Virus record (IMG/VR): IMGVR_UViG_3300033143_001932
DNA length: 64,000 bases
Source: an uncultured virus (IMG/VR IMGVR_UViG_3300033143_001932)
Lineage: Duplodnaviria > Heunggongvirae > Uroviricota > Caudoviricetes > Crassvirales
Strand: one strand, 5' to 3'
In this document: in pieces, positions 11,273 to 60,649 of the stretch
Layout: the number at the start of each line of letters is the position of its first letter
How positions within the stretch are numbered: the first letter of the stretch is position 1
The notes under the pieces: model-generated
Told to the model about the DNA's origin: nothing
Database searches by the model: none
Seen by the model: only the letters and a program-made list of their open reading frames with translations
Made by a program: the position numbers and the translations under genes

Positions 11273-12349
11273 ATGGATAAAATACAAGTAAAAATAGTAG
11301 ATGACACTATAGAAGATAAAGGGGTTCAGCAAATTGAACAAGAGTTGGTAGATAAACACAACAAAGAAGTTGCTGAAGCTAATGAAGAATTAAAAGAAGA
11401 AAACCCTGAAACGGAGGGTATAAATGACGTTGACGTTCTTTCATATATTAAAAATAGATACGATAGAGATATCAAATCTATTGATGAGTTGTTTGACGCG
11501 AGACAACAAAATGAAGAGTTACCAGAAGATGTGGCTAGTTTTTTTCAATTTAAAAAAGAAACAGGTCGAGGAATGGAGGACTTTTTAAAAGCGCAACAAG
11601 ATGTAGAAGATATTTCAGATACTGATTTAATTTCTAATTATTGGAGCGACACTCAACCTCACTTAGACGGAGAAGATATAAAATTTGAATTTAATAATAA
11701 ATTTGGATTTAATCCGGATGAAGATGATGAGTCTTTTGTAAGGGAGAGAAAAATCGCTAGAAAAGCAGAACTTGCTAAAGCTAAGAAACACTTTAAAGAG
11801 CTTCAAGATAAATACAAAACACCTTTATTTGAGTCAAATACTGGTGAATTTACCTCGGAAGATCACAAAGAATTTCTAGCTTACAAGGAAGCTCAAAACC
11901 AAGCACGCACCCAGCAAGAAGAAAGAAGCCGGTATTTTACCGAAAAAACTAATGATGTTTTTAATGATGAGTTTGAAGGTTTCAACTTTACTATTAATGA
12001 CAACACTTTTTCATATAAACCGGGGGATGCTAATAAAATGCGTGAATCACAATCTGATTTACAAAATTTTATGAAGCAACATTTAACTGATGAAGGGTAT
12101 ATTGCAGACGCTAGAAAGTATCATAGAGCCTTAGCGGCAGCTATGAACCCAGATGCATTTGCAAGATATTTTTACGAGCAGGGTCAGTCGGATCAAGTTA
12201 CCGAATCAGCTAAAAGATCAAAAAACATTAACATGGGAGATGATTTAAGGCGATCACCACAAGGAAAAATTTCTAGTGGTTTCAAGGTAGCAAGTGTTCC
12301 TACTAGTCACGGTAATGGGCTACGAATAAGAAGTAAAAATAAAAACTAA
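11273..12349 (+). CDS. putative capsid scaffolding protein
   Basis: acidic helical 358 aa between portal and capsid genes. Confidence 0.7.
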   Translation: MDKIQVKIVDDTIEDKGVQQIEQELVDKHNKEVAEANEELKEENPETEGINDVDVLSYIKNRYDRDIKSIDELFDARQQNEELPEDVASFFQFKKETGRGMEDFLKAQQDVEDISDTDLISNYWSDTQPHLDGEDIKFEFNNKFGFNPDEDDESFVRERKIARKAELAKAKKHFKELQDKYKTPLFESNTGEFTSEDHKEFLAYKEAQNQARTQQEERSRYFTEKTNDVFNDEFEGFNFTINDNTFSYKPGDANKMRESQSDLQNFMKQHLTDEGYIADARKYHRALAAAMNPDAFARYFYEQGQSDQVTESAKRSKNINMGDDLRRSPQGKISSGFKVASVPTSHGNGLRIRSKNKN

Positions 12350-26891: not shown

Positions 26892-29800
26892 ATGAACGAT
26901 AAGACATTAGAATCATTATATAAAAAATTAGGCTTAGAAGCTAATAATGTAAGTTTTGAAGATTTTAAAGGAGCTTTAGAGGAGTACCCAGAATACAGGG
27001 ATAATATATTTACAGCGCTTGTAGACGCAAAAGAATATACTCAAGAAGAAAGGGGCGCATTTGATGACTTGTTAAAAAAAAAAGAAGAAACTTCGGAGTT
27101 GGTTGGAAATCAAGCTCCTACCACTACTACATTGGCTACCGATCAGTCGGCTCAGGAAGCTGTTTCGGCTTCTTCCGATTTAGAAAGTAGTCAAGAACCT
27201 CAAAACCCTCAAGATGTAATTCAAGATGAGCAAGAGGTAGTTCAAGCTCAAGACGATACGGAATTACAAATTCAACAAGAGAACACTCAAGAAAATACAC
27301 CTCCACCTGTTATGGCTAACGCTACGGTAGACCAGCCTGAGATTACTAGCGCCACACCTATAATAGAAAACCAAACAGACATGACTCCTCCGGCAGAAAT
27401 GCCAGATGAATTTGCGCCAATTAATGCAGATGATTTAATGACTAGTAAAAGCGAAACTGGTCTGTATCCACAAACGCAAGTAGGCTTTGAAGCGGGTAAT
27501 GAAGAAGATGGAAATTTAGCCAACAAAAAAATGGATTATACTTTTTATCAGATTCCTGTTTCTGAAATGGAGCCCGACCAGGCTTCAAGAGTGGTTAATT
27601 ATATGCAAGAAAATGGGCTAACTGAATTAGAGGCTAGAATAAAAAATCCTGACATCTTTATAAACCAAAAGCAATTAGACGCTTTAGAACAAGAGAGAGA
27701 AGAAACAAATGAATTTTTAGAAGAAGGGGTTGGGAATATAATAAACACTATAGGTGATGACATATACAACGATGGATTAGAAGTAACAGAAGGAGAAAAT
27801 ATACCATCGGATTGGAGTACAGAATTATATACTGCACCTAATGGATCTACCTATGACAATAAATTAGAATTTATTAACTCCCCAGAGGGTAGGCAATTGA
27901 TTATGGAAGAAAAAACTTCTATAGCTGGAGGTGATATAATGAATTTTGACATTAATCGTCACATTTTAGAAGATGCTTTTGTTTTCTCAGGAGCCGACCC
28001 AGAACAGTTCGGTTATTATAAAAACGAAGACGGTGAATGGGGTGGACCCAGAAGGATGTTTGACTATAGAGGTCTTACTCAAGAATCCTCTGGTCCTGGA
28101 TTACAGAATGTATTTGATTGGGGAAGTTTTATTAACCCCGAAACCAATAAACCTTACGACTTAACCAAGGTAAAAAGCTATGATGATTTATCCGTCTTGT
28201 GGGATAAGATGTCTCTACACATGAACGATGATCAAGCTCAACGCATAATGCAAGAGGCTTATAATCAAAGTATAAATAGTGTTAATAATAAAATTTATGA
28301 CTACGGTCAAAATTATTTAGATAGAGCCGACCAAGGGGTTTCTAGGTCTTATAAGCAATTAAGAAACGCTCAATACGACTTAAACTTAATAGTAAATAAT
28401 CTTGCATACTATGAAGGTTTAGATGATAAAATGAAATTTGCTTATGACTCTAAATACACAGAAGCAACAGGATTATCGTATGGCGCCTATTTAGCACAAC
28501 AATGGGATTTCCAGCAGGCTAATGTAGAAACAGCTTTATTAGAATATGAACAACAACGTTCCTCTTGGTATAGTGATGAAACTGAACTGATAGATTTAAA
28601 AACAGGTAAGTTAATCAACTACGCAGACGCGGATCAAGAAACTTTAGACTATCATCAAAACATAGATGAAAGTGCGTTAAAATTAGTTAGAAGAAAAGGA
28701 AATAACCAAGGGTTTTTAGACGAACACTTAAGACGTTCATATTATAATCTAATGGCAATTTCATCTACAATGCCTGATAATTTTGCCGAAGCTTGGTGGG
28801 AAGGAAATTCTTACTTTGATGTAGCTCAAGGAGCTTTATTAGAAGGAATGGTAGGGTTATCAGCAGAAGCTAATAAACTGTTTTTTGATGATGAAGAAAT
28901 GTATAACAACATTAAAGAGATAGGAAATAGCTTTTCTAAATGGGGAGGGACTGACAAGCAGACCCTTATCAATTCATCTATGTATGATAAAAACGAAGCC
29001 CCTGAATTAAGAGATATGAGGATGAAAAAGCTTTGGTATTTAGATGGTAACTCACCTTGGATAAATACCTTTAATGAGGCTTTATATGATTTTCAATCAG
29101 CTAATAGAGCTGTAGTGTTAAATGAAGATTACATTCAAAAGGCTAAATTAAACCCTGAGAATAAATTTAATATGTACACCAGGGACTTGTTTATGTCCTT
29201 TGATTATCCTGACACACCAGGGACTCCTGACGATCCAATGAGTTTTGGTAAATACGGACCAAAAGAGGCTGCCAATCATTGGTCTCAAGTTTTACAACAA
29301 AATGGAGTGCAAATATCAGATGAAGACATGGCTTTTATGGAACAAACTTTTGCAGAAAAGGGAATTCATATGAGTGCTCAAATGACTAATTTCCTATATA
29401 AATTTGCTTTAACTAGAGGTATGTTTAAAGGAGTAGTGGGAACCACGGGCGCTACAGCAGCAGCTCCTCAAGGAGTATATAGATGGGACGCTGTTACGGC
29501 AGGGTTGGCGGGCTTAGGTCAAAGTAAAGCGTATCAACAATCAGTGTTTCTTCTTTCATCTATGTTGCAAGAAGGGTTAATAATGGAGGCTTATCAAGAA
29601 GGTTTTGAAGGTGGAGAAGGAATGGGTTTTTTAGAGGGTGCCGCTCTCGCTGGAGGCTCTGGCGCAATGAATATGGCGTGGAAGGCTATTAATAAAATTC
29701 CATTTATGGCTAAAATGCCAGCTACCATGGAGAAATTTCTCAATAGTCAATCTCAAGTCGTAGGGGGTATGGGAGGTATGTACACTTCTGAACTAGTTCA

Positions 29801-32800
29801 CGAATTAGGTCATAATAAAGAGTGGGGAGAAATAGTAAATAATGTGTTTGCTGGTCCTGACAATAGCCCCGGAGAAAAAGCTTTGTTGCTTTATTTTATG
29901 ACCGCTGGTATTCAGTATTCTAAAACTGGGAAAGAAGATATTACACAGTTTAGAGATGCTATAAAAAAAGACATTCAAAACATATATAATCGAAGCTATA
30001 AAAGAGTGCCAGCTTCAATAGCGGCTAATTACAAAAAATTAGGAATACGTCCTGACGCAACTGACCAGGAAGTAGTAGACGCTTATTTAAAGGCTTCCGA
30101 AAAATATGAAGATAAAGGCGGTTACAGAGATCCTAATAAAATGGAAGAGTTTATGGAGCTTCATGAGGCTTACACCACTGTTAAAAACCATAGAGGACAA
30201 AAATCCAACATAGAACAAGGGTTGGGGGAAATAGCTAAACAAGAACAACAAGATAAATCTAATCAAGAGCGATATGATCATTTAGATGATTTAGCAATTA
30301 AAACTACAGATCCTAGAACTGTAATGTTGGGGATTCCAACCTCAACTGAAAATTTAACAACCCTACCTTCAGAACAAAGGATATTAGAAGAAATGCAACC
30401 CACGTTTAATGCGGAGGAAGCTAACTTTTGGGCTAACAAGAGTGAAGTAGAGATTAAAGATTCTTATGGTTATATAAATAATTTAGTAAAACAAGGCGAA
30501 GTTACATCACTTCAAGGAGAACACATGAAGCAACAAATTTCTAATGTTCGTGAAATGATGAAAGGATTAGAGGTGATTGAAAACCCTGAAGCCAAGGCAG
30601 AGGCTTATGATTTATCTAATGAATTAATTCAACAAGAAAGATTATTAAACCTATATCAATCATCAAAAGTGTCTCCATCTCAAAAAATCAAGCAAGTTGA
30701 AGCTAGAATAAAAGAGATTAATAGTCGATTAACCGAAATAGGAAATAACATTGAAGCACCCGCAAGTCCTATAGAAAAAGCGCAAAATGAATTCAACAGG
30801 CTTTTAGAAGAAAAAAGAATGATTGAAAGCCCAAGCTTTAGAAGTAGTAACTCTAAAGAATATGTAGAACAAATGTTGAGAGATATTAACGGTAAGATTA
30901 GTGCTCAAGAGGAAAAAATGATTAACGAGTTTGGTGGTCAGTTTTCTGGGGGAGGTTCTAATAGAGTTTACGTAGAAGAAGTAGGTCCTTCTAAGTCTAA
31001 AACCGAAACGGAAAAGGGAGATAGAATAAAAGTAGGAGAGCAAGAGGTTATTGAGGAAGTTCCTGAAAACTTAGAAAGAGAAAATCCAGAGCTGTTAGAC
31101 GCAGAGCAAAAATCATCTCGAGACCAAAAGATAGAGGAAATGCAAGCAGAGGGAGAACAAGCTAGGATTACTCAACTCAAAGATTACATAAAAGAATTAA
31201 AAGAAAAAGGTGGAGATGAAAAGCGCGTACAGGAATTAGAAAAAGAATTAAACGATTTAGAGTCGAAACAAGTTGAACCATTAAAAACTGAAAAAGATGC
31301 CGATAGTGAGCCAGAACCAATGGAAGTACCTAGCGAAGAACAAGCCGAAAGTGTTCAAGAGACTGAAGAGATACAACCCGATGACGCGACTCCAGGACCT
31401 TCCGAAGTCAGCGCCCAACCGAAAGCCGACAAGACGACCCCACCGAAACGTTACAAGGACCTAAGAGATTCTGAAAACACCTCTGGAGACCCTCAATTAG
31501 AAAGAGTATATGGCGAGATTGAAAGTGAAATTGCTGAAAAAGTTGAAGCTAGAGACAGAAGAGATAGATACGTGAAAGACAGGTCAGCTATGACTACTAA
31601 ACAACAAGAAGCTACAGACCGAAGGGTAAATGCGGAAACTAAAGAGGCTGCTTTAGAATACTTAATGAGGTCTAAATGGTATGAAAACGCCACAGACCTA
31701 CAAAGAGATGCCGCCTTTAAAGAGGTGAGTTATCGATTTGGAGCGCCTAAGAAGCGATTAAACGCTCAAGACAGAGCTAACCAAGCTGTAGGGAATAAAG
31801 GACGTCAGAAGTTCGTAGATGAGCTCCAAATGCTTAAAGATCAATTTAAGATAGCTAATAAGGCTGGGAAAGATGTTAGGTATATAGTAGACAATATTCG
31901 TAAATATGTAGATCGAAACTTCACTTCTAAAAAAGGAGGGGTAAAAATCAACTGGACTACCGGTGACGCTAAGAAGCTTTATAAAAACCTAACAGATGAA
32001 AGAGCTGTTCTAGAAAAAGCTTACACAAATAAAAACGGAGACAGGATTAAAAAGTCTATTGCTCGTTTAGAAGAAATAACGAAAGAGATAGACCAGCTTA
32101 TAGAAAACAAAACTCGCCCTACTTATGTAGCGTGGTTAAAAGAAAATACGGTAGTAGATAATTTAACTACTGAGTCTGGTAGTGCTCAAATCTCGGTGAA
32201 TAAAATTAAAGAACTAAGACAGTATGTGGATAATTTAAAAAAACCATTTGAGGAAATGACCACTACCGAACTAGAGCAAACTATTAGTGATGTTCAACAA
32301 ATTATAAAAGAAGGTAAAGACGCTAAAACATTAGAGAGAAGTCGTAAGCAAAAATCTCAAATGGAAAATAAGGGTAAAATAGCAAAAGAGTTATATGTTG
32401 AAGGGGAAGATTTTAGCCAAGATGTAAACACCTACGAGGAGGCTGAGGCATATTTAGGATCTCAGAAAACTGACCTTAAACAACCCTTAAAAACTTTAGA
32501 ATTAGACCAAGAAAAAACTTTTAAAAACGAACAAGGAGAAGAGGTGTCGTTAGAAAAAGGAATTAGCGACAAGCGATCAAAATTAAGAAAATTAAGAGAA
32601 GAGGCAGAAAATATTGAAGAGGAAGTAATTGCTGATGAGGTGGTTGCTGATGAGGTGGTTGCGGAAGAACCTGTCTCAGATGAGGTAATAGAATTAGAAC
32701 CAATAGACCCAACAGAAGCTGACTTTTCATCTTATGATGTTAAAAACGCTGAAGAGAATCCAGCATTGGAGCCCTATATTAATTCAGAGGTGGAATCATC

Positions 32801-35800
32801 TAGAGATATGTTAGGGGGTCCAAAAGCTATTCAAGAAACGGCAGAATTAGGAAAAAAATTAGATGCAGACAATGCTAATGTGGTGTTTAAGAGAGATTTA
32901 GGGATTGTAGGTGGTCGAAGAATATTTGAATTTGAAGTAGAAGGTACAGGAGAAAAATTCTTAATGTACAAATCTAAAGGAGAGGGAACTGGTCCTGAAT
33001 CAAAAGGAAAATGGGTTCCTTTAAAATACTTCGCTAAAGACGGTTGGTTTGTTAAAGGAAGAGTAGATAACGAGGGTAACTTAAGTATGGAGCCACTTAC
33101 TAACGAAAACAATCCGAAGTTTAATAAATACGGAAGTGAGACCTTTAAAGAGTTAGCCAAAAAACTAGAAGCTGACGCAGAAGCTGTAAAAAATGAAAAC
33201 ACTACCGAAACTAAAGAAGAGGTTGCAACAGAAGAAGTGGCGGAAACTAAGAGAACTAAAGAAGATGTACAAAAAGAAATCGAAGCTACTGAAAATGAAA
33301 TTGAACAATTAGAAGAGGTTTTAAATGAACTACCTACTCAAGCAGAATTAGACGCTGCTAGAGACAGGTTGATTAATGAAGCTAGAGATTCAGACGCTAT
33401 AGATAAAATTGAAAATGCATACGAAAAAGCTTCTAAACGTTTAAGACAGGAAGAGGCAAGTTCAAGTGTAACTTTTGATCCTAGGGACGGTTTTGTATTG
33501 GTTACAACGAAAGACGGAAAGACGTATCTCGTTAAAAGTAAATCAGACTTAAATAAAATTGACCCAGAGGAATTTGAGTCAGGAACTGGATATGTCAGTA
33601 AAGATGTTCAAATTAGTAGACAACAACAACAAGCTATTCAAGGTGAAGAATTAAAGGATAAACTAAAAAGCGAAGCGGAAAAAGCTGTTAAAAAGATAGC
33701 AAAACCTTTCCATGGAGCCTCTATTAAAACTATCAAAACTCTATTAGAAAGAGTGGGTCTAGGTAAGCCAGAACTAAAAGAAGCTACTGTTGATATTTAT
33801 GAAGACATTGTAGCGGCTAGAAGAAATATTCAAAAACTTGCTGATGAGTTAACCACATCGCTAAATGAAGTGAAAAAAGAAAACAAAATCACTGATAAGT
33901 TTTTATTGAAAGCTAAATCAAAAGATGGTAAATCAAGCACAAGAAATATTATAAAACACGAAACTCCAGAATCTTCTTATGAGATTACCAATGACACAGC
34001 CGTAGATTTATATATGCTTAAAATAGCGGAAGGTAAATACAGGTTAGAGCAAACAGGTGTAGATGTAGCTGAATTGGACTCCTATATGGACGCCAATCCA
34101 GAGCTAAAAAAATACGCAGAAGACATGTTAGACTGGTATGAGTCTACAAGACCTTATTTTAAAGATGTGTTTGAAGATGTAACAGGTAGAACTTTTGAGG
34201 ACTTCAATAGAAACCCTGACGGAGAAGAGTTGCGTTATATGCCTATTTGGGCAAAAGGCACAAGTGAGAGACCAGGGTCAGATCTTATAACAAGTGATAA
34301 TTTTACTTTAGGTATAAAAGGCGGTAAAGATCAAAACTATTCTAGCAGTGTAATGACTGATCGTTTTAAACAAAGAAATGATAGATGGGTAATGAGTAAA
34401 GACGGTAGATGGGAGCGCCCTGAAGGTCCATATCAAATGACAGGAGCTAACACAAAGGCATTAGATTACATTAAAGAGATGACTCATACTAATGAGATGT
34501 GGGATGTCAACCAAAAAATTAAAGGGCTAATTAACCCACAAACAGAAGGGAAATTAATTGACATGATGGGAGAAGAGAACTATAGATCTCTTAAGTCTCA
34601 ATTAGACGAAATAACGGGCGGAGAAAATAAATACCAAACTCAAGTTGAGTCTGTTATAAATAAAGTTAATAAAGCTGGTGTGGTATATAGACTAGCATTT
34701 AACACCTTGAATATAGCCAAACAAGCAACTACCGCCACTCATTGGCTTGGAGCTGGAATAAAAGACGGGGTATACCCTTGGGATATGGTGGCGCAGTCCG
34801 GATTAAGCGTTACTGACCTGGTTGGTAAAAACGGGAAAGAAAAGGTAAATTTCATTTGGGATATAATAACAGATCCTCAAATAAAAAATAGATGGAAAAA
34901 AACCGCTATAGACCCTGCCTTTGAAGAGTTTATTAATAAAGCGTCTACCACTAAAGAATGGAGCGTTACCCAAAAGAGAAGAATGTTAGGTAAACTTTTA
35001 ACTGACATAGGAATGAAGCCTACGCAAGTTGGGGATATGCTTGGAGTTTTAGGCGGAGGAATTCCTTACGCGTTAGCTTATAGGACGAAGTACATAAAAG
35101 ACGGATACTCTAAAGCTCAAGCTTCAGAAATGGCTCTAGGTAAAATGACTAAGCTAATGAACGAGTTACAGCAATCTCAAGAAGGTTACGCTACTACACC
35201 ACTACAAAGAAGTTTATTAGGTAGAACGTTTGTGACTCAATATAAGAGTTCTCAAATTCAAGCTGTAAACAAACAAATGCAAGTAATTCAAGAAATAAGA
35301 GATTCTAAAAACGCTACCACTAATGAGAAGGCTCAAATGGCATACGATTTTATTTATTGGAGCATGTTTAACGCTGGCTTTAGTGCTTTCGCAACAGGAT
35401 ACGCAGCGGATGTATTAGGTCTTAGTGATTCTGACGATAAAGGTGAAGAACGAACACAACACAACTTTATAGAAGGTATGATGAGTTCACAACTTCAAGG
35501 TATGGGTATGTTAGGGTTAGTAGCTGAATTTGGAATGAATGAATTTATTGGACAAGACTGGAAAAACAACAACCCAATGATTGACTTTATAAGTGATATT
35601 ACTGGAGCTGTCTATGAGGCAAGCACAACAGGTATTGGGGATATGACTGAAAAGGTGGAGAAAGGAGATTTACTAAAAAGTGTAATTGACTTAGAAATAA
35701 AAAATAAAATAATTGAAGCCGCTGAAAATGATGGATGGAGTACGGCTATTGATATGTATGACGATTATATGTTTTCTACACATGGAGATAAATTAGAAGG

Positions 35801-36128
35801 AGAAGGAGAAGTAAGTAAATTGTGGGCAGAAAAATTTGAAAAAGAACGAAACGCTTTAATTAAATTTAGTGAAAAAGAAAGCTTTATAAAAGCTATAACC
35901 CCCAATGGTTTAGCTAAGATTTTTGATGCAATTTCAGGGGATGCAGAATTGTTAGACCTTGTTATTAAGCGAGTTCAAGGATATGATGAAATAAAAGAAA
36001 AAGAGAAAAGAAGAGTAGATAAATTATTTGAACTAACTAAAGGTAAAAAATACATTGAAGACGAACCAAAGAAACAGACTGAGAAAGCGAACGTGTTGAA
36101 GTATGAAGACGAAAACTCGGCTTATTGA
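26892..36128 (+). CDS. giant internal virion/ejection protein (3078 aa) with degenerate J-domain
   Basis: last gene of the structural block; helical, with Gly-rich hydrophobic segments and a J-domain-like stretch at about aa 1046-1098. Confidence 0.7.
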   Translation: MNDKTLESLYKKLGLEANNVSFEDFKGALEEYPEYRDNIFTALVDAKEYTQEERGAFDDLLKKKEETSELVGNQAPTTTTLATDQSAQEAVSASSDLESSQEPQNPQDVIQDEQEVVQAQDDTELQIQQENTQENTPPPVMANATVDQPEITSATPIIENQTDMTPPAEMPDEFAPINADDLMTSKSETGLYPQTQVGFEAGNEEDGNLANKKMDYTFYQIPVSEMEPDQASRVVNYMQENGLTELEARIKNPDIFINQKQLDALEQEREETNEFLEEGVGNIINTIGDDIYNDGLEVTEGENIPSDWSTELYTAPNGSTYDNKLEFINSPEGRQLIMEEKTSIAGGDIMNFDINRHILEDAFVFSGADPEQFGYYKNEDGEWGGPRRMFDYRGLTQESSGPGLQNVFDWGSFINPETNKPYDLTKVKSYDDLSVLWDKMSLHMNDDQAQRIMQEAYNQSINSVNNKIYDYGQNYLDRADQGVSRSYKQLRNAQYDLNLIVNNLAYYEGLDDKMKFAYDSKYTEATGLSYGAYLAQQWDFQQANVETALLEYEQQRSSWYSDETELIDLKTGKLINYADADQETLDYHQNIDESALKLVRRKGNNQGFLDEHLRRSYYNLMAISSTMPDNFAEAWWEGNSYFDVAQGALLEGMVGLSAEANKLFFDDEEMYNNIKEIGNSFSKWGGTDKQTLINSSMYDKNEAPELRDMRMKKLWYLDGNSPWINTFNEALYDFQSANRAVVLNEDYIQKAKLNPENKFNMYTRDLFMSFDYPDTPGTPDDPMSFGKYGPKEAANHWSQVLQQNGVQISDEDMAFMEQTFAEKGIHMSAQMTNFLYKFALTRGMFKGVVGTTGATAAAPQGVYRWDAVTAGLAGLGQSKAYQQSVFLLSSMLQEGLIMEAYQEGFEGGEGMGFLEGAALAGGSGAMNMAWKAINKIPFMAKMPATMEKFLNSQSQVVGGMGGMYTSELVHELGHNKEWGEIVNNVFAGPDNSPGEKALLLYFMTAGIQYSKTGKEDITQFRDAIKKDIQNIYNRSYKRVPASIAANYKKLGIRPDATDQEVVDAYLKASEKYEDKGGYRDPNKMEEFMELHEAYTTVKNHRGQKSNIEQGLGEIAKQEQQDKSNQERYDHLDDLAIKTTDPRTVMLGIPTSTENLTTLPSEQRILEEMQPTFNAEEANFWANKSEVEIKDSYGYINNLVKQGEVTSLQGEHMKQQISNVREMMKGLEVIENPEAKAEAYDLSNELIQQERLLNLYQSSKVSPSQKIKQVEARIKEINSRLTEIGNNIEAPASPIEKAQNEFNRLLEEKRMIESPSFRSSNSKEYVEQMLRDINGKISAQEEKMINEFGGQFSGGGSNRVYVEEVGPSKSKTETEKGDRIKVGEQEVIEEVPENLERENPELLDAEQKSSRDQKIEEMQAEGEQARITQLKDYIKELKEKGGDEKRVQELEKELNDLESKQVEPLKTEKDADSEPEPMEVPSEEQAESVQETEEIQPDDATPGPSEVSAQPKADKTTPPKRYKDLRDSENTSGDPQLERVYGEIESEIAEKVEARDRRDRYVKDRSAMTTKQQEATDRRVNAETKEAALEYLMRSKWYENATDLQRDAAFKEVSYRFGAPKKRLNAQDRANQAVGNKGRQKFVDELQMLKDQFKIANKAGKDVRYIVDNIRKYVDRNFTSKKGGVKINWTTGDAKKLYKNLTDERAVLEKAYTNKNGDRIKKSIARLEEITKEIDQLIENKTRPTYVAWLKENTVVDNLTTESGSAQISVNKIKELRQYVDNLKKPFEEMTTTELEQTISDVQQIIKEGKDAKTLERSRKQKSQMENKGKIAKELYVEGEDFSQDVNTYEEAEAYLGSQKTDLKQPLKTLELDQEKTFKNEQGEEVSLEKGISDKRSKLRKLREEAENIEEEVIADEVVADEVVAEEPVSDEVIELEPIDPTEADFSSYDVKNAEENPALEPYINSEVESSRDMLGGPKAIQETAELGKKLDADNANVVFKRDLGIVGGRRIFEFEVEGTGEKFLMYKSKGEGTGPESKGKWVPLKYFAKDGWFVKGRVDNEGNLSMEPLTNENNPKFNKYGSETFKELAKKLEADAEAVKNENTTETKEEVATEEVAETKRTKEDVQKEIEATENEIEQLEEVLNELPTQAELDAARDRLINEARDSDAIDKIENAYEKASKRLRQEEASSSVTFDPRDGFVLVTTKDGKTYLVKSKSDLNKIDPEEFESGTGYVSKDVQISRQQQQAIQGEELKDKLKSEAEKAVKKIAKPFHGASIKTIKTLLERVGLGKPELKEATVDIYEDIVAARRNIQKLADELTTSLNEVKKENKITDKFLLKAKSKDGKSSTRNIIKHETPESSYEITNDTAVDLYMLKIAEGKYRLEQTGVDVAELDSYMDANPELKKYAEDMLDWYESTRPYFKDVFEDVTGRTFEDFNRNPDGEELRYMPIWAKGTSERPGSDLITSDNFTLGIKGGKDQNYSSSVMTDRFKQRNDRWVMSKDGRWERPEGPYQMTGANTKALDYIKEMTHTNEMWDVNQKIKGLINPQTEGKLIDMMGEENYRSLKSQLDEITGGENKYQTQVESVINKVNKAGVVYRLAFNTLNIAKQATTATHWLGAGIKDGVYPWDMVAQSGLSVTDLVGKNGKEKVNFIWDIITDPQIKNRWKKTAIDPAFEEFINKASTTKEWSVTQKRRMLGKLLTDIGMKPTQVGDMLGVLGGGIPYALAYRTKYIKDGYSKAQASEMALGKMTKLMNELQQSQEGYATTPLQRSLLGRTFVTQYKSSQIQAVNKQMQVIQEIRDSKNATTNEKAQMAYDFIYWSMFNAGFSAFATGYAADVLGLSDSDDKGEERTQHNFIEGMMSSQLQGMGMLGLVAEFGMNEFIGQDWKNNNPMIDFISDITGAVYEASTTGIGDMTEKVEKGDLLKSVIDLEIKNKIIEAAENDGWSTAIDMYDDYMFSTHGDKLEGEGEVSKLWAEKFEKERNALIKFSEKESFIKAITPNGLAKIFDAISGDAELLDLVIKRVQGYDEIKEKEKRRVDKLFELTKGKKYIEDEPKKQTEKANVLKYEDENSAY
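31297..31464 (+). CDS. nested +1-frame 55-aa basic protein
   Basis: MPIVSQNQWKYLAKNKPKVFKRLKRYNPMTRLQDLPKSAPNRKPTRRPHRNVTRT; A-rich leader; resembles MPFxSxxQxxYLxxNxP small phage proteins. Confidence 0.6.
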   Translation: MPIVSQNQWKYLAKNKPKVFKRLKRYNPMTRLQDLPKSAPNRKPTRRPHRNVTRT

Positions 36129-57863: not shown

Positions 57864-59435
57864 ATGATAGTAAAAGATATTAGCTTTGGCGATGAAGCTA
57901 GAGGTGCCTTAATCGCAGGCATAAACAAAATCGCTAATGCTGTAAAAAGCACACTAGGTGCGCGAGGTCGCACAGTCTTAATTGAATCAACTGAGCACAT
58001 AGGCGGTATAACGGTAACAAAGGATGGAGTAACTGTTGCTAACAGCATCAACCTTATGGACCCGACTGAAAATTTAGCTGTAGTAATGATGCGTCAAGCT
58101 GCATCCAAGACAGCTAGTGAAGCTGGTGACGGAACGACTACAGCTATAGTGTTAGCTCAAGCATTGATCCATGAAGCTCAAACACGTATAAAGCCGGAGA
58201 TGAACTTGACTCAGATTATGAGAGCTATTCAATCTAGTTCGGATTACATACTAAAGCTATTAACTGACATGTCGGACCAGGTGAATGAGGATAGGCTGCT
58301 AGATGTCGCCTCTATTTCAGCTAATAATGATTCGGAGATTGGGGAAATAATATACAACGCTTACAATAATGTAGGTAAGCATGGAGTGGTGACGGTAGAG
58401 AATGCGCAAGGGTCTGAGACTTATTGCACAGTTAGTGAAGGTATGCGTATAGCCCGTGGGTATTTGTCTAGGTATTTTATAACTAACAAGAAAACCAGTG
58501 AATGCGTTTTGGAGAAACCATACATCTTAGTTCTTGATCAAGAGGTTGAGCAGTTCGGGAATATTGAACAGGTCCTGGCTGATGTGTACAAAGAAGGGCG
58601 TTCCATACTAATCATTTCTAACTTAAGTCCAAACATTATAAACACACTAAACCTCAACCGAGCTAGAAATGGTTTAAAGGTTTGTGCTATTCAACCACCG
58701 CAGTTTGGTTGGAAGTCAAACGAGCTGATGGAGGATATAGCGATAGCAACTGGCGCAACATATTTTAGTGAGTCGACTGGCGACAATCTACAATCAGTCT
58801 CCATAGCCGATCTTGGTTTCTGTGATAAAGTAATCGTAGACCAAACACATACCATACTAGTGCGAAACGAGGACAATGACCAAGTGGTTAATGACCGAGT
58901 GTCCGTCCTGTGGGAAGAGCATGATAACCATAAAAATAAAGACACTCAAGAATTTATTCGCGAGCGCATAGCTGTACTGTCAGGACGAATCGGAGTAATC
59001 CACGTAGGAGCCAATTCAGACATAGAGCAAAAAGAAAAGCGCGATAGGGTGGATGATGCTGTCTGCGCGACTCGCGCAGCACTGGAGGACGGAATTCTCT
59101 CCGGAGGTGGTGTCGCACTTAGGGACATCTCCACAAAGGTTGGCTCTCAAAAAGGATCATGTGAAGAAGATCAGGTCGCTTACGCAATTTTAGAAAAAGC
59201 ACTGCGTGCTCCTTATAATCAAATATTAGCCAATGCGGGTCTGGACTATCCAGCACCCTCTGGACAAAGAAAGGGCTACGGCATAAATGTCAAGACTATG
59301 AAAAGTGGGAACATGCGTAAGCTAGGCATCATTGACCCAACTAAAGTAACAAAGAGTGCTATAGTAAATGCGATATCTGTAGCTACAACTATCCTATCAA
59401 CTAATGCTATAATAACAAACATAAGACAACAATGA
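57864..59435 (+). CDS. groEL: phage chaperonin GroEL
   Basis: VKSTLGARGR, VTKDGVTVA, AGDGTTTA, RVDDAVCATRAALEDGILSGGG and IIDPTKVT motifs. Confidence 0.95.
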   Translation: MIVKDISFGDEARGALIAGINKIANAVKSTLGARGRTVLIESTEHIGGITVTKDGVTVANSINLMDPTENLAVVMMRQAASKTASEAGDGTTTAIVLAQALIHEAQTRIKPEMNLTQIMRAIQSSSDYILKLLTDMSDQVNEDRLLDVASISANNDSEIGEIIYNAYNNVGKHGVVTVENAQGSETYCTVSEGMRIARGYLSRYFITNKKTSECVLEKPYILVLDQEVEQFGNIEQVLADVYKEGRSILIISNLSPNIINTLNLNRARNGLKVCAIQPPQFGWKSNELMEDIAIATGATYFSESTGDNLQSVSIADLGFCDKVIVDQTHTILVRNEDNDQVVNDRVSVLWEEHDNHKNKDTQEFIRERIAVLSGRIGVIHVGANSDIEQKEKRDRVDDAVCATRAALEDGILSGGGVALRDISTKVGSQKGSCEEDQVAYAILEKALRAPYNQILANAGLDYPAPSGQRKGYGINVKTMKSGNMRKLGIIDPTKVTKSAIVNAISVATTILSTNAIITNIRQQ

Positions 59436-59723: not shown

Positions 59724-60020
59724 ATGGCAAAAACTTCTAAAGCAAGCATGCCTTGCAACAAACCAAGGAGATCTAATCGTCCAGGAAAAAAAATGATGGT
59801 TAAAGGCTGTGAAGGTGGAAAGGAAAAACTTCTACACTTTGGAGCTAAAGGTTATGGTCATAATTATTCTCCAGCAGCTCGTAGGTCATTCAGAGCTAGA
59901 CACAAATGTGCTACAGCTACAAGTAAATTAACGGCTAGATATTGGGCGTGTAAAAAACTGTGGGCTGGAAAAGGGGGCTCCACTAAAAGCTCTCCAAAAA
60001 ATAAACAAGGAAAATATTAA
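59724..60020 (+). CDS. conserved small basic viral protein
   Basis: LLHFGAKGY..RRSFRARHKC..TARYWAC motif. Confidence 0.7.
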   Translation: MAKTSKASMPCNKPRRSNRPGKKMMVKGCEGGKEKLLHFGAKGYGHNYSPAARRSFRARHKCATATSKLTARYWACKKLWAGKGGSTKSSPKNKQGKY

Positions 60021-60024
60021 CACA

Positions 60025-60210
60025 ATGAATTATAGAACATCACTTCCATTACATGAGACAGAGTTTCTTGATGAGTGGCCCAAAAAGAAAAGAAAAAATA
60101 AATCAAAAGGGAACAATAGGTCTATTAAGGATAAAAGAAGAGCTCATAAGAAGCAGCTAAAAAAGTGTGGTAAAAAAACCTTGGGAAGCTGTAAGGTTGT
60201 AAAAAGATAA
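60025..60210 (+). CDS. basic protein with RTSLPLHxTEF leader (copy 1)
   Basis: MNYRTSLPLHETEF followed by a K/R-rich tail. Confidence 0.7.
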   Translation: MNYRTSLPLHETEFLDEWPKKKRKNKSKGNNRSIKDKRRAHKKQLKKCGKKTLGSCKVVKR

Positions 60211-60254
60211 GATATAGCTAAGAAAAGAAAAGTAACTAGAAAAAAAAGTAAGAC

Positions 60255-60455
60255 ATGAGTAAGATGACTAACAGAAAACGCAAATGCCCTAAAGGAGAAA
60301 GGTTTAATAAGGGTAAAAACAAATGTGTAGAAACACTTATTAGTAAAGCTGGCATAGACAGCCCAGGGGCTGTAGCTGGTTTAATTGGTGTTTTAGGTGG
60401 AGGATTAGGAGCTTACGCTAAAGTAAAGTCGGATATTAAAAAGCAAGGACGATGA
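60255..60455 (+). CDS. small basic protein with Gly-rich hydrophobic segment
   Basis: KCPKGERFNKGKNKCV plus AVAGLIGVLGGGLGAYA. Confidence 0.6.
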   Translation: MSKMTNRKRKCPKGERFNKGKNKCVETLISKAGIDSPGAVAGLIGVLGGGLGAYAKVKSDIKKQGR

Positions 60456-60619
60456 ATTATAGAACATCGCTCCCGTTACACCCAACCGAATTTCCTGAAG
60501 TGTCTAAAAAAGATAGACGAAAGGTTAAAAGATATTCCCGCAAAGCGGTAAAAGGTAAGTCCACAAAGAAAAGTAGACGAGAGACTAGTAAGTTATATTA
60601 TAAAATAGTAGGATTGTAA
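60452..60619 (+). CDS. basic protein with RTSLPLHxTEF leader (copy 2; not in ORF track)
   Basis: MNYRTSLPLHPTEFPEVSKKDRRKVKRYSRKAVKGKSTKKSRRETSKLYYKIVGL; ATGA overlap with the upstream stop. Confidence 0.75.
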   Translation: MNYRTSLPLHPTEFPEVSKKDRRKVKRYSRKAVKGKSTKKSRRETSKLYYKIVGL

Positions 60620-60649
60620 AGAATCTTAAGAAACAAACAAGAAATAATT

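Follow-up and report, generated by a model that had tools for sequence, protein, structure and literature searches.

Genes nested within larger genes are already known in phages, and the spanin genes and phiX174 are the closest described parallels to the locus reported here. In phage lambda, Rz1 is a small gene within Rz, located on the same strand in another reading frame, similar to the arrangement that we describe. Spanin genes adopt embedded, overlapped and separated architectures, and embedding has been argued to arise from separate genes; in the part of the spanin survey on which we draw, no family has both embedded and non-embedded members (PMC6139136). In phiX174, the overlap of E is internal to D, and the portion of the study cited here describes disorder as easing the dual constraint (PMC8227390). 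However, Rz and Rz1 are fixed functional partners, whereas the family described below, which we refer to as MPFKS-type, occurs free, fused and embedded in two non-homologous hosts. Likewise, the nested frame of phiX174 is new and taxonomically restricted, whereas the nested MPFKS-type frame appears to be old and is widespread, and it is the host-frame segment that would be the newcomer. What is new is therefore not nesting itself, but one family that is free, fused and embedded in two unrelated hosts. To this we add a selection test within the lineage of the locus, a test of host switching, and a link to PHROG 1375 with its published proteomics.

Two groups of small proteins from cultured phages are also relevant. 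Members of PHROG 1375 and 5320 include Patience gp10, Barnyard gp9 and gp74-78 of the cluster B phages, and share with the MPFKS-type family a helix pair of the form F-x-S-x-x-Q-x-x-aromatic...W and a K/R tail. The actinophage members of PHROG 1375 differ in being free-standing, in having no MP start and in being extended at the N-terminus by a basic stretch. According to the portion of the Patience study used here, gp10 is made during infection and is listed as a virion protein (PMC4324244). The second group, gp4 of Patience and Adjutor, is a small basic accessory protein that binds capsid hexamers, as described in an excerpt of the structural report (PMC11965321).

The nested reading frame and its family

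The window is the whole 64,000-nucleotide stretch of the uncultured virus record. On its plus strand, an open reading frame (ORF) at 31297..31464 begins with ATG at 31297, continues for 55 sense codons and ends with TAA at 31462-31464. It lies wholly within a gene of 3078 amino acids (26892..36128) on the same strand, in the +1 frame. A first-pass annotation had called this a true overlapping gene that opens with an ATG after an A-rich leader, in a GC- and CpG-rich segment where the host frame encodes an acidic linker. Coordinates and peptide are exactly as it gave them. GC content is 52%, compared to 36.5% for the host gene, and the 13 CpG dinucleotides equal the maximum of any 168-nt interval of that gene. 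Read in the host frame, the overlap (31296..31466, plus strand, residues 1469-1525) is an acidic, Pro-rich linker with 16 D/E and 5 K/R that begins DADSE, the local form of a recurrent D-A-[VI]-Q-E reading. The nested 55-residue peptide, P0001, is the reverse in character, with 16 K/R, a single D/E and a pI of ∼12. It has the 35-60-residue size and K/R-rich tail of the MPFKS-type family. Because it has neither Cys nor a hydrophobic signal or other hydrophobic stretch, and thus no lipobox, it is not a lipoprotein, and an embedded o-spanin of the Rz1 kind was rejected.

Length alone does not distinguish the ORF from chance, because five ATG-initiated ORFs of at least 50 amino acids occur in alternative frames across nine plus-strand genes of the window (27 kb), and the host gene is itself expected to contain ∼1.1 open runs of 55 codons. 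A second long ORF is present in the +1 frame of that gene (27973, 63 amino acids); it has no family match and was treated as chance. No sigma-70-type promoter was found near the nested ORF, a consensus that does not cover promoters of Bacteroidota, and no tRNA was found in the window. Nevertheless, P0001 ranks first with family profiles, its own frame is under selection and nesting occurs in this same phase in 92 of 254 distinct members among the matches listed. Based on these features, the ORF is very probably a genuine, separately translated gene encoding a small basic protein of the MPFKS type.

The first-pass annotation had proposed a homology search and had noted a resemblance to free-standing small phage proteins of the form MPFxSxxQxxYLxxNxP. 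Searches with P0001 as a single sequence came back empty. Neither word-indexed phmmer nor tblastn of GenBank phages gave a homologue, and phmmer against 1.84 billion representatives returned one match, a repetitive unrelated protein. P0001 matched nothing in Pfam, NCBIfam or PHROG (none at E ≤ 10 in the last), whereas the ESM Atlas placed it at 0.92 beside viral hypothetical proteins of 40-52 residues. DUF3008 (PF11450), with Atlas scores of 0.82 and 0.86, was treated as a lead only, as no row of the family profile A1 matches Pfam at E ≤ 0.01; nor does any match NCBIfam. Since single sequences fail, placing P0001 in the family needs a profile. Motif scans of IMG/VR gave 116, at least 120 and at least 121 loci (at least 357 overall), which reduce to 254 distinct peptides among the matches listed. 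Of these, 92 are nested in +1, 89 stand free, 64 form the N-terminal module of a longer protein, 7 are unclear and 2 are nested in +2; the noted resemblance to free-standing proteins is thereby borne out.

Profile A1 leans towards P0001, because two of the scan patterns were chosen with P0001 in view. With P0001 and the closely related peptide L168 removed from it, A1 still placed P0001 at the top of the 2318 six-frame segments of the window, at ∼32.3 bits (E 1.1e-8) versus 8.8 for the runner-up, and with a narrow profile of free members only P0001 was again first of 2318 (11.8 bits). As the core residues are partly fixed by the search patterns, a profile of 39 nested peptides that were selected by their scaffold-like host is the fairer test, and here too P0001 was first of 2318 (∼24.6 bits). 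Shuffling gave best scores in 5000 of 13.5 for A1 and 20.9 for the scaffold-only profile, compared to ∼32.6 and ∼24.8 bits for P0001, respectively. P0001 is the only hit of the nested-gene type in the whole window, and it matches the profile with the core M1 P2 S5 Q8 N15 P17. Among 3820 candidates, A1 matched 2404 proteins at E ≤ 0.001, and those with names among the 120 matches listed are all hypothetical. However, 27 of the 52 A1 rows match PHROG 1375 at E ≤ 0.01. By this sequence evidence the family is linked to PHROG 1375, which neither P0001 nor the Elemovirus copy matches directly; for P0001 the link is indirect, through other rows of the family. No paper on the family or its nesting was found in the open-access literature.

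Two variations within the family were observed. In one subfamily (L409, L428, L383, L433, L452 and L454), present in both host genes, a Cys pair (C-Y...W-[DN]-C) replaces the aromatic core and is a possible disulfide or metal site. In addition, GG falls within residues 23-45, right after the module, in 34 of the 64 N-terminal fusions, 7 of the 89 free copies and none of the 92 nested copies among the matches listed. The fusions often carry further GG repeats (L140, L252, L256, L259, L294, L314 and others), and the GG sites are possibly protease sites that release the module.

Constraint on the nested frame and its start site

For the lineage of the window itself, the informative comparison is one contig from sequencing run X8 that is 96% identical, with 56 differences in 1400 nt (40 listed, with 14 more outside the count). 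Twelve of the 40 listed differences are inside the nested ORF, where they fall on host codon positions 1, 2 and 3 in the ratio 7/2/3, compared to 3/3/22 outside (p = 0.0016). The ATG, the TAA and the open +1 frame are all kept, which leaves the frame uninterrupted in a close relative alongside the existence of standalone homologues; interruption of the one and absence of the other were the findings that the first-pass annotation had named as fatal to its reading. Changed host codons are non-synonymous in 8 of 10 cases inside the overlap, versus 6 of 25 outside, and 4 of the 9 changed nested codons are silent, the others being Y>F, K>E, V>I, R>K and N>S. No variant falls within the ORF in two near-identical contigs (L001 and L002), and runs X2, X3 and X5, which cover it only in part, have none there among those listed. 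Searches with the host protein returned only near-identical copies, searches of metagenome contigs gave nothing, and the sequencing runs listed as having matching DNA include no RNA dataset.

The possibility that the gene was once real and is now decaying in this lineage has several points in its favor. Trp23, present in at least 90% of the family, is Leu in P0001, which also sits on a long branch and has no direct database match, and decay does occur in the family, as L407 lacks the ATG and a second copy in the cultured Elemovirus elemoF_6-3D is truncated to 10 codons. However, Leu23 is shared with two scaffold-nested peptides, L168 and L381, the closest relatives of P0001, and is therefore a mark of the subfamily. 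Neither the window nor the nearest record (G001) has a further copy, the X8 relative retains start, stop and frame, and its changes avoid host position 3. We consider decay improbable.

A larger sample comes from the second host of the family, a scaffold-like gene. The best 80 of 337 loci, selected by the C-terminal part of the L168 host alone, gave 60 distinct genes, of which 58 have an intact +1 ORF. The 60 consist of 56 with an MP start, one with a divergent ATG, one with GTG, one with ACG in place of ATG and one without the segment; as these genes are related to one another, the counts do not represent independent events. From 22 disjoint pairs we obtained 0.113/0.064/0.070 differences per codon at host positions 1/2/3 in the overlap, compared to 0.126/0.078/0.158 in the linker before it, 0.157/0.092/0.243 in the linker after it and 0.084/0.055/0.201 within the core, with p values between 4e-4 and 3e-16. 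Stops in the +1 frame are absent from the overlap, yet make up 7-10% of codons in the flanking linker. Together with the X8 contig, in which changes likewise avoid host position 3 inside the ORF, these pairs answer the synonymous-constraint check that the first-pass annotation had proposed, and indicate that purifying selection acts in the nested frame.

Alternatively, the +1 ORF could be a by-product of selection on the host-frame D-A-[VI]-Q-E... motif, which might serve as a signal for cleavage or targeting. The motif does recur in two unrelated proteins, and twice in gp18 of Elemovirus. However, it is the host-silent third positions that are frozen, while the host amino acids change at the rate of the linker. 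At the host Ala codon from which the nested G-CC is read, 56 of 56 scaffold genes use GCC, versus 107 of 1177 elsewhere in them, and amino acid change per codon in the overlap is 0.157 for the host frame (flanks 0.174 and 0.198) and 0.103 for the +1 frame. In addition, the host-phase frame is closed within the gene in 87 of the 89 free-standing copies among the matches listed (at +8 nt in 59) and open through it in 2. The scaffold-pair rates thus largely refute selection on the host motif, which we regard as very improbable.

The leader directly before the ATG, TTAAAAACTGAAAAAG (31281..31296, plus strand), is A-rich, with adenines at -3, -6 and -11 to -14, and includes the upstream +1-frame stop, TAA at 31282-31284. 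According to the part of the work cited here, adenines at -3, -6, -12 and -13 promote initiation in Flavobacterium johnsoniae (PMC6847099). The host gene has 213 internal ATGs, and the nested ATG is one of only 4 with A at all four positions. The folding energy around it is -0.7 kcal/mol, compared to a median of -5.5 for internal ATGs. A start-site matrix derived from the genes of the window places the nested ATG 10th of the 213, with a score lower than the median for real starts. Among 56 scaffold-nested leaders, A is found at both -3 and -6 in 96%, versus 52% of same-phase control sites, and all four adenines are present in 39 of 56, versus 208 of 3816 control sites. The nested ATG therefore has a start context of the Bacteroidota type. 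Ribosomes would initiate at this internal ATG on the late structural transcript by means of the A-rich, unstructured leader.

An A-run (GAAAAAG) precedes the nested ATG, and ribosomal frameshifting into +1 could be imagined, which would cut the giant protein short and leave it with a basic tail at its C-terminus. However, frameshifting does not require a start codon, and yet one is preserved (ATG in 57 and GTG in 1 of the 60 scaffold genes from the best 80 of 337), the +1 frame is open for no more than 2-15 codons upstream of it (4 in the window gene), and the leaders carry the initiation adenines. Frameshifting is therefore disfavored, and we think it most unlikely.

Host genes and the origin of the overlap

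The 3078-residue host gene (26892..36128, plus strand) is the last of the structural module. The gene order of the window agrees with that of elemoF_6-3D (NC_055853), both ending in a giant structural gene, which is gp18 and annotated as "structural protein" in the latter. The first-pass annotation had called the host an ejection protein. Synteny with gp18 is compatible with this label; the protein has no significant match of its own (no PHROG match better than E 0.03, none in NCBIfam, and only a sub-threshold J-domain in Pfam). Its C-terminal part weakly resembles another giant protein, that of L130 (E 2e-6), and 3 of 12 other giant hosts scanned match internal-virion or DarB-like PHROGs. From this synteny and these matches, the host is a probable internal virion (ejection) protein. 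Elsewhere in the window, PHROG matches include terminase, portal, several virion structural proteins, primase/helicase and GroEL. Near-identical DNA is present in metagenomes of marine sediment, vent and seawater. A scaffold-like gene of 358 amino acids (11273..12349, plus strand) lies between the portal and the probable capsid gene, and matches 70 GenBank records, 68 of which are Flavobacterium elemo phages; the phage probably infects Bacteroidota. The scaffold-like gene is homologous to the L168 host (E 2e-48), and although homologous genes provide the second host of the nested gene, this one carries no copy itself. The labels scaffold and capsid are assigned from position; sequence searches did not confirm the identity of the probable capsid protein, for which the predicted model is poor (pLDDT 40).

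Three other features of the window were noted. A J-domain-like segment of the giant protein (30030-30191, residues 1047-1100) scores E 2.9e-5 with Pfam DnaJ, below the curated cut-off, and shows no HPD motif; the same phage encodes a GroEL at 57864-59435. Adjoining GroEL are three free-standing small basic ORFs at 59724-60620, of 98, 66 and 55 amino acids (starts 59724, 60255 and 60452), two of which were scanned and had no NCBIfam match; they resemble those that cluster beside free MPFKS-type copies in 023Pt_psg01 and C75C1. Finally, an acidic repeat of the giant gene at 34374-34390 differs by 15 gap positions, a multiple of three, from the near-identical contig L002.

Across the 140 nested loci that we examined, 118 hosts fall in one cluster of ∼400-residue proteins homologous to the window gene at 11273-12349, and the others are giant proteins in several clusters, of 1500 to more than 2800 residues wherever the locus extends far enough. 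We searched 15 records, of which 7 are at least 90% complete, and found exactly one family match in every one; the P0001-type gene is likewise the only copy in G001. In elemoF_6-3D and MW202828, the scaffold-like genes lack a copy and the giant genes carry it (gp18 in the former). The copy in elemoF_6-3D starts at NC_055853 position 52379 and would encode 42 amino acids. Neither nested copy is called in the GenBank/RefSeq records, as the first-pass annotation had anticipated of annotation pipelines. Free-standing members are missed too, with uncalled genes at L456:5001-5123, L457:6001-6111 and L459:5001-5105 in the GenBank records of P-RSP2, S-CBS2 and C75C1. The truncated second copy in gp18 consists of the 10 codons plus a leader, 396 nt upstream of the full copy (L452:22984-23016, NC_055853 about 51983), and suggests a partial duplication.

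The 89 free-standing and 64 fused distinct members among the matches listed, together with the actinophage relatives, rule out a de novo overprinted gene. As judged from these sequences, the nested gene is instead an old partner that was engulfed by the linker. Lys and Arg codons read one base back give text rich in Glu and Asp, so an acidic linker can accept the cassette as a stop-free stretch. Consistent with this, nesting is in +1 in 92 and in +2 in only 2 of the 254 distinct peptides among the matches listed, and T at third positions is 5.7% in the nested copies listed versus 25%, an avoidance required if the host frame is to remain without stops. Scaffold homologues without the nested segment are shorter. 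The gene would thus have entered the linker as an in-frame cassette, with the host tolerating its acidic, stop-free reading.

In a tree of 94 rows, the giant-nested label requires 13 changes for 14 rows. P0001, on its long branch, pairs with scaffold-nested L168 (100/91), and the peptide most closely related to that of Elemovirus, from MW202828, clusters with scaffold-nested L409 (97/96). On a 28-row subset, a division into giant-nested and scaffold-nested copies was rejected by an AU test (p = 7e-5). The alignment is 40 columns long, and we chose the 14 scaffold-nested rows of the test with the first tree already in view. For these reasons, and because of the long branch of P0001, it is likely but not proven that the cassette has switched repeatedly between scaffold-like and giant host genes. 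A stronger proposal can be put forward only tentatively, namely that an old head-internal basic protein acts as a portable, frame-compatible cassette that drops into disordered stretches of various structural genes and has moved repeatedly between the scaffold-like and giant genes of abundant aquatic phages.

The product and its relatives in cultured phages

AlphaFold2 predicts that P0001 has helices at residues 6-15 and 17-26 followed by an unstructured basic tail (mean pLDDT 79). Sequence and fold searches of solved structures with the 55-residue model gave no match, with nothing above Z 2.4, which does not show that the fold is new. A viral fold search led to Barnyard gp9 (E 1.0). The profile of the marine family scores Barnyard gp9 at 35 bits and Patience gp10 at 16 bits, and relatives of the former are found in 486 actinophage records, including Patience gp10; both belong to PHROG 1375 (E 1e-31 for Patience gp10). 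In contrast, Barnyard gp3, an annotated capsid accessory protein, scores below zero, which suggests that the capsid stabilizer gp4 of Patience and Adjutor belongs to a different family, although as described in the excerpt cited above it offers a possible model of how P0001 works. Free copies are found between portal and head genes in 023Pt_psg01 and Patience, and gp9 of Barnyard lies among head-region genes.

We would predict, from the structural-module hosts, the head-region neighbors and the N-terminal fusions, that the nested product is a basic peptide internal to the head that binds DNA or capsid, a role in which we place moderate confidence. It would act in head morphogenesis, its helical N-terminal module docking on the interior of the procapsid and its K/R tail binding packaged DNA. 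The full account, in which an old MPFKS-type gene is embedded in a disordered acidic linker and its product is head-internal, is one that we hold with similar reserve.

A real nested gene could also encode an intracellular microprotein that is not part of the virion and that binds nucleic acid or targets the host, with roles in late regulation, ribosome or nucleoid binding, or lysis timing, and that is found in late genes only because their acidic linkers are tolerant. A pI of ∼12 suits any nucleic-acid binder. The cluster B copy, Oosterbaan gp76, is near a DNA-binding gene and far from structural genes, and FlowerPower gp48 sits in the lysis region between peptidase and holin; both contexts favor an intracellular role. 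In the part of the Patience proteomics available to us (PMC4324244, Table S1), gp10 has 1 spectrum in particles versus 4 at 30 min and 2 at 2.5 h in infected cells, and its authors treated 3 spectra of gp21 as possible contamination; the portion of a second report that we used makes no statement on gp10 (PMC7150772). Patience gp10 is therefore expressed, with weak evidence for its presence in particles. Low particle counts are nonetheless to be expected, since K/R-rich proteins yield few usable tryptic peptides. Furthermore, every identified host is a structural-module gene, and the free copies of 023Pt_psg01, Barnyard and Patience are among head-region genes. An intracellular role is accordingly possible, but we find it less convincing than a head-internal one.

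Taken together, nested and free copies alike make up a widespread phage gene family that is hidden from annotation. The order of events in its overlaps appears to be the opposite of textbook overprinting, with an old nested gene and a new host reading, and the data suggest that overlaps may move between host genes. Cultured carriers, such as Elemovirus on Flavobacterium sp. BAL314 and Patience on M. smegmatis, make both the expression and the function of the family testable.
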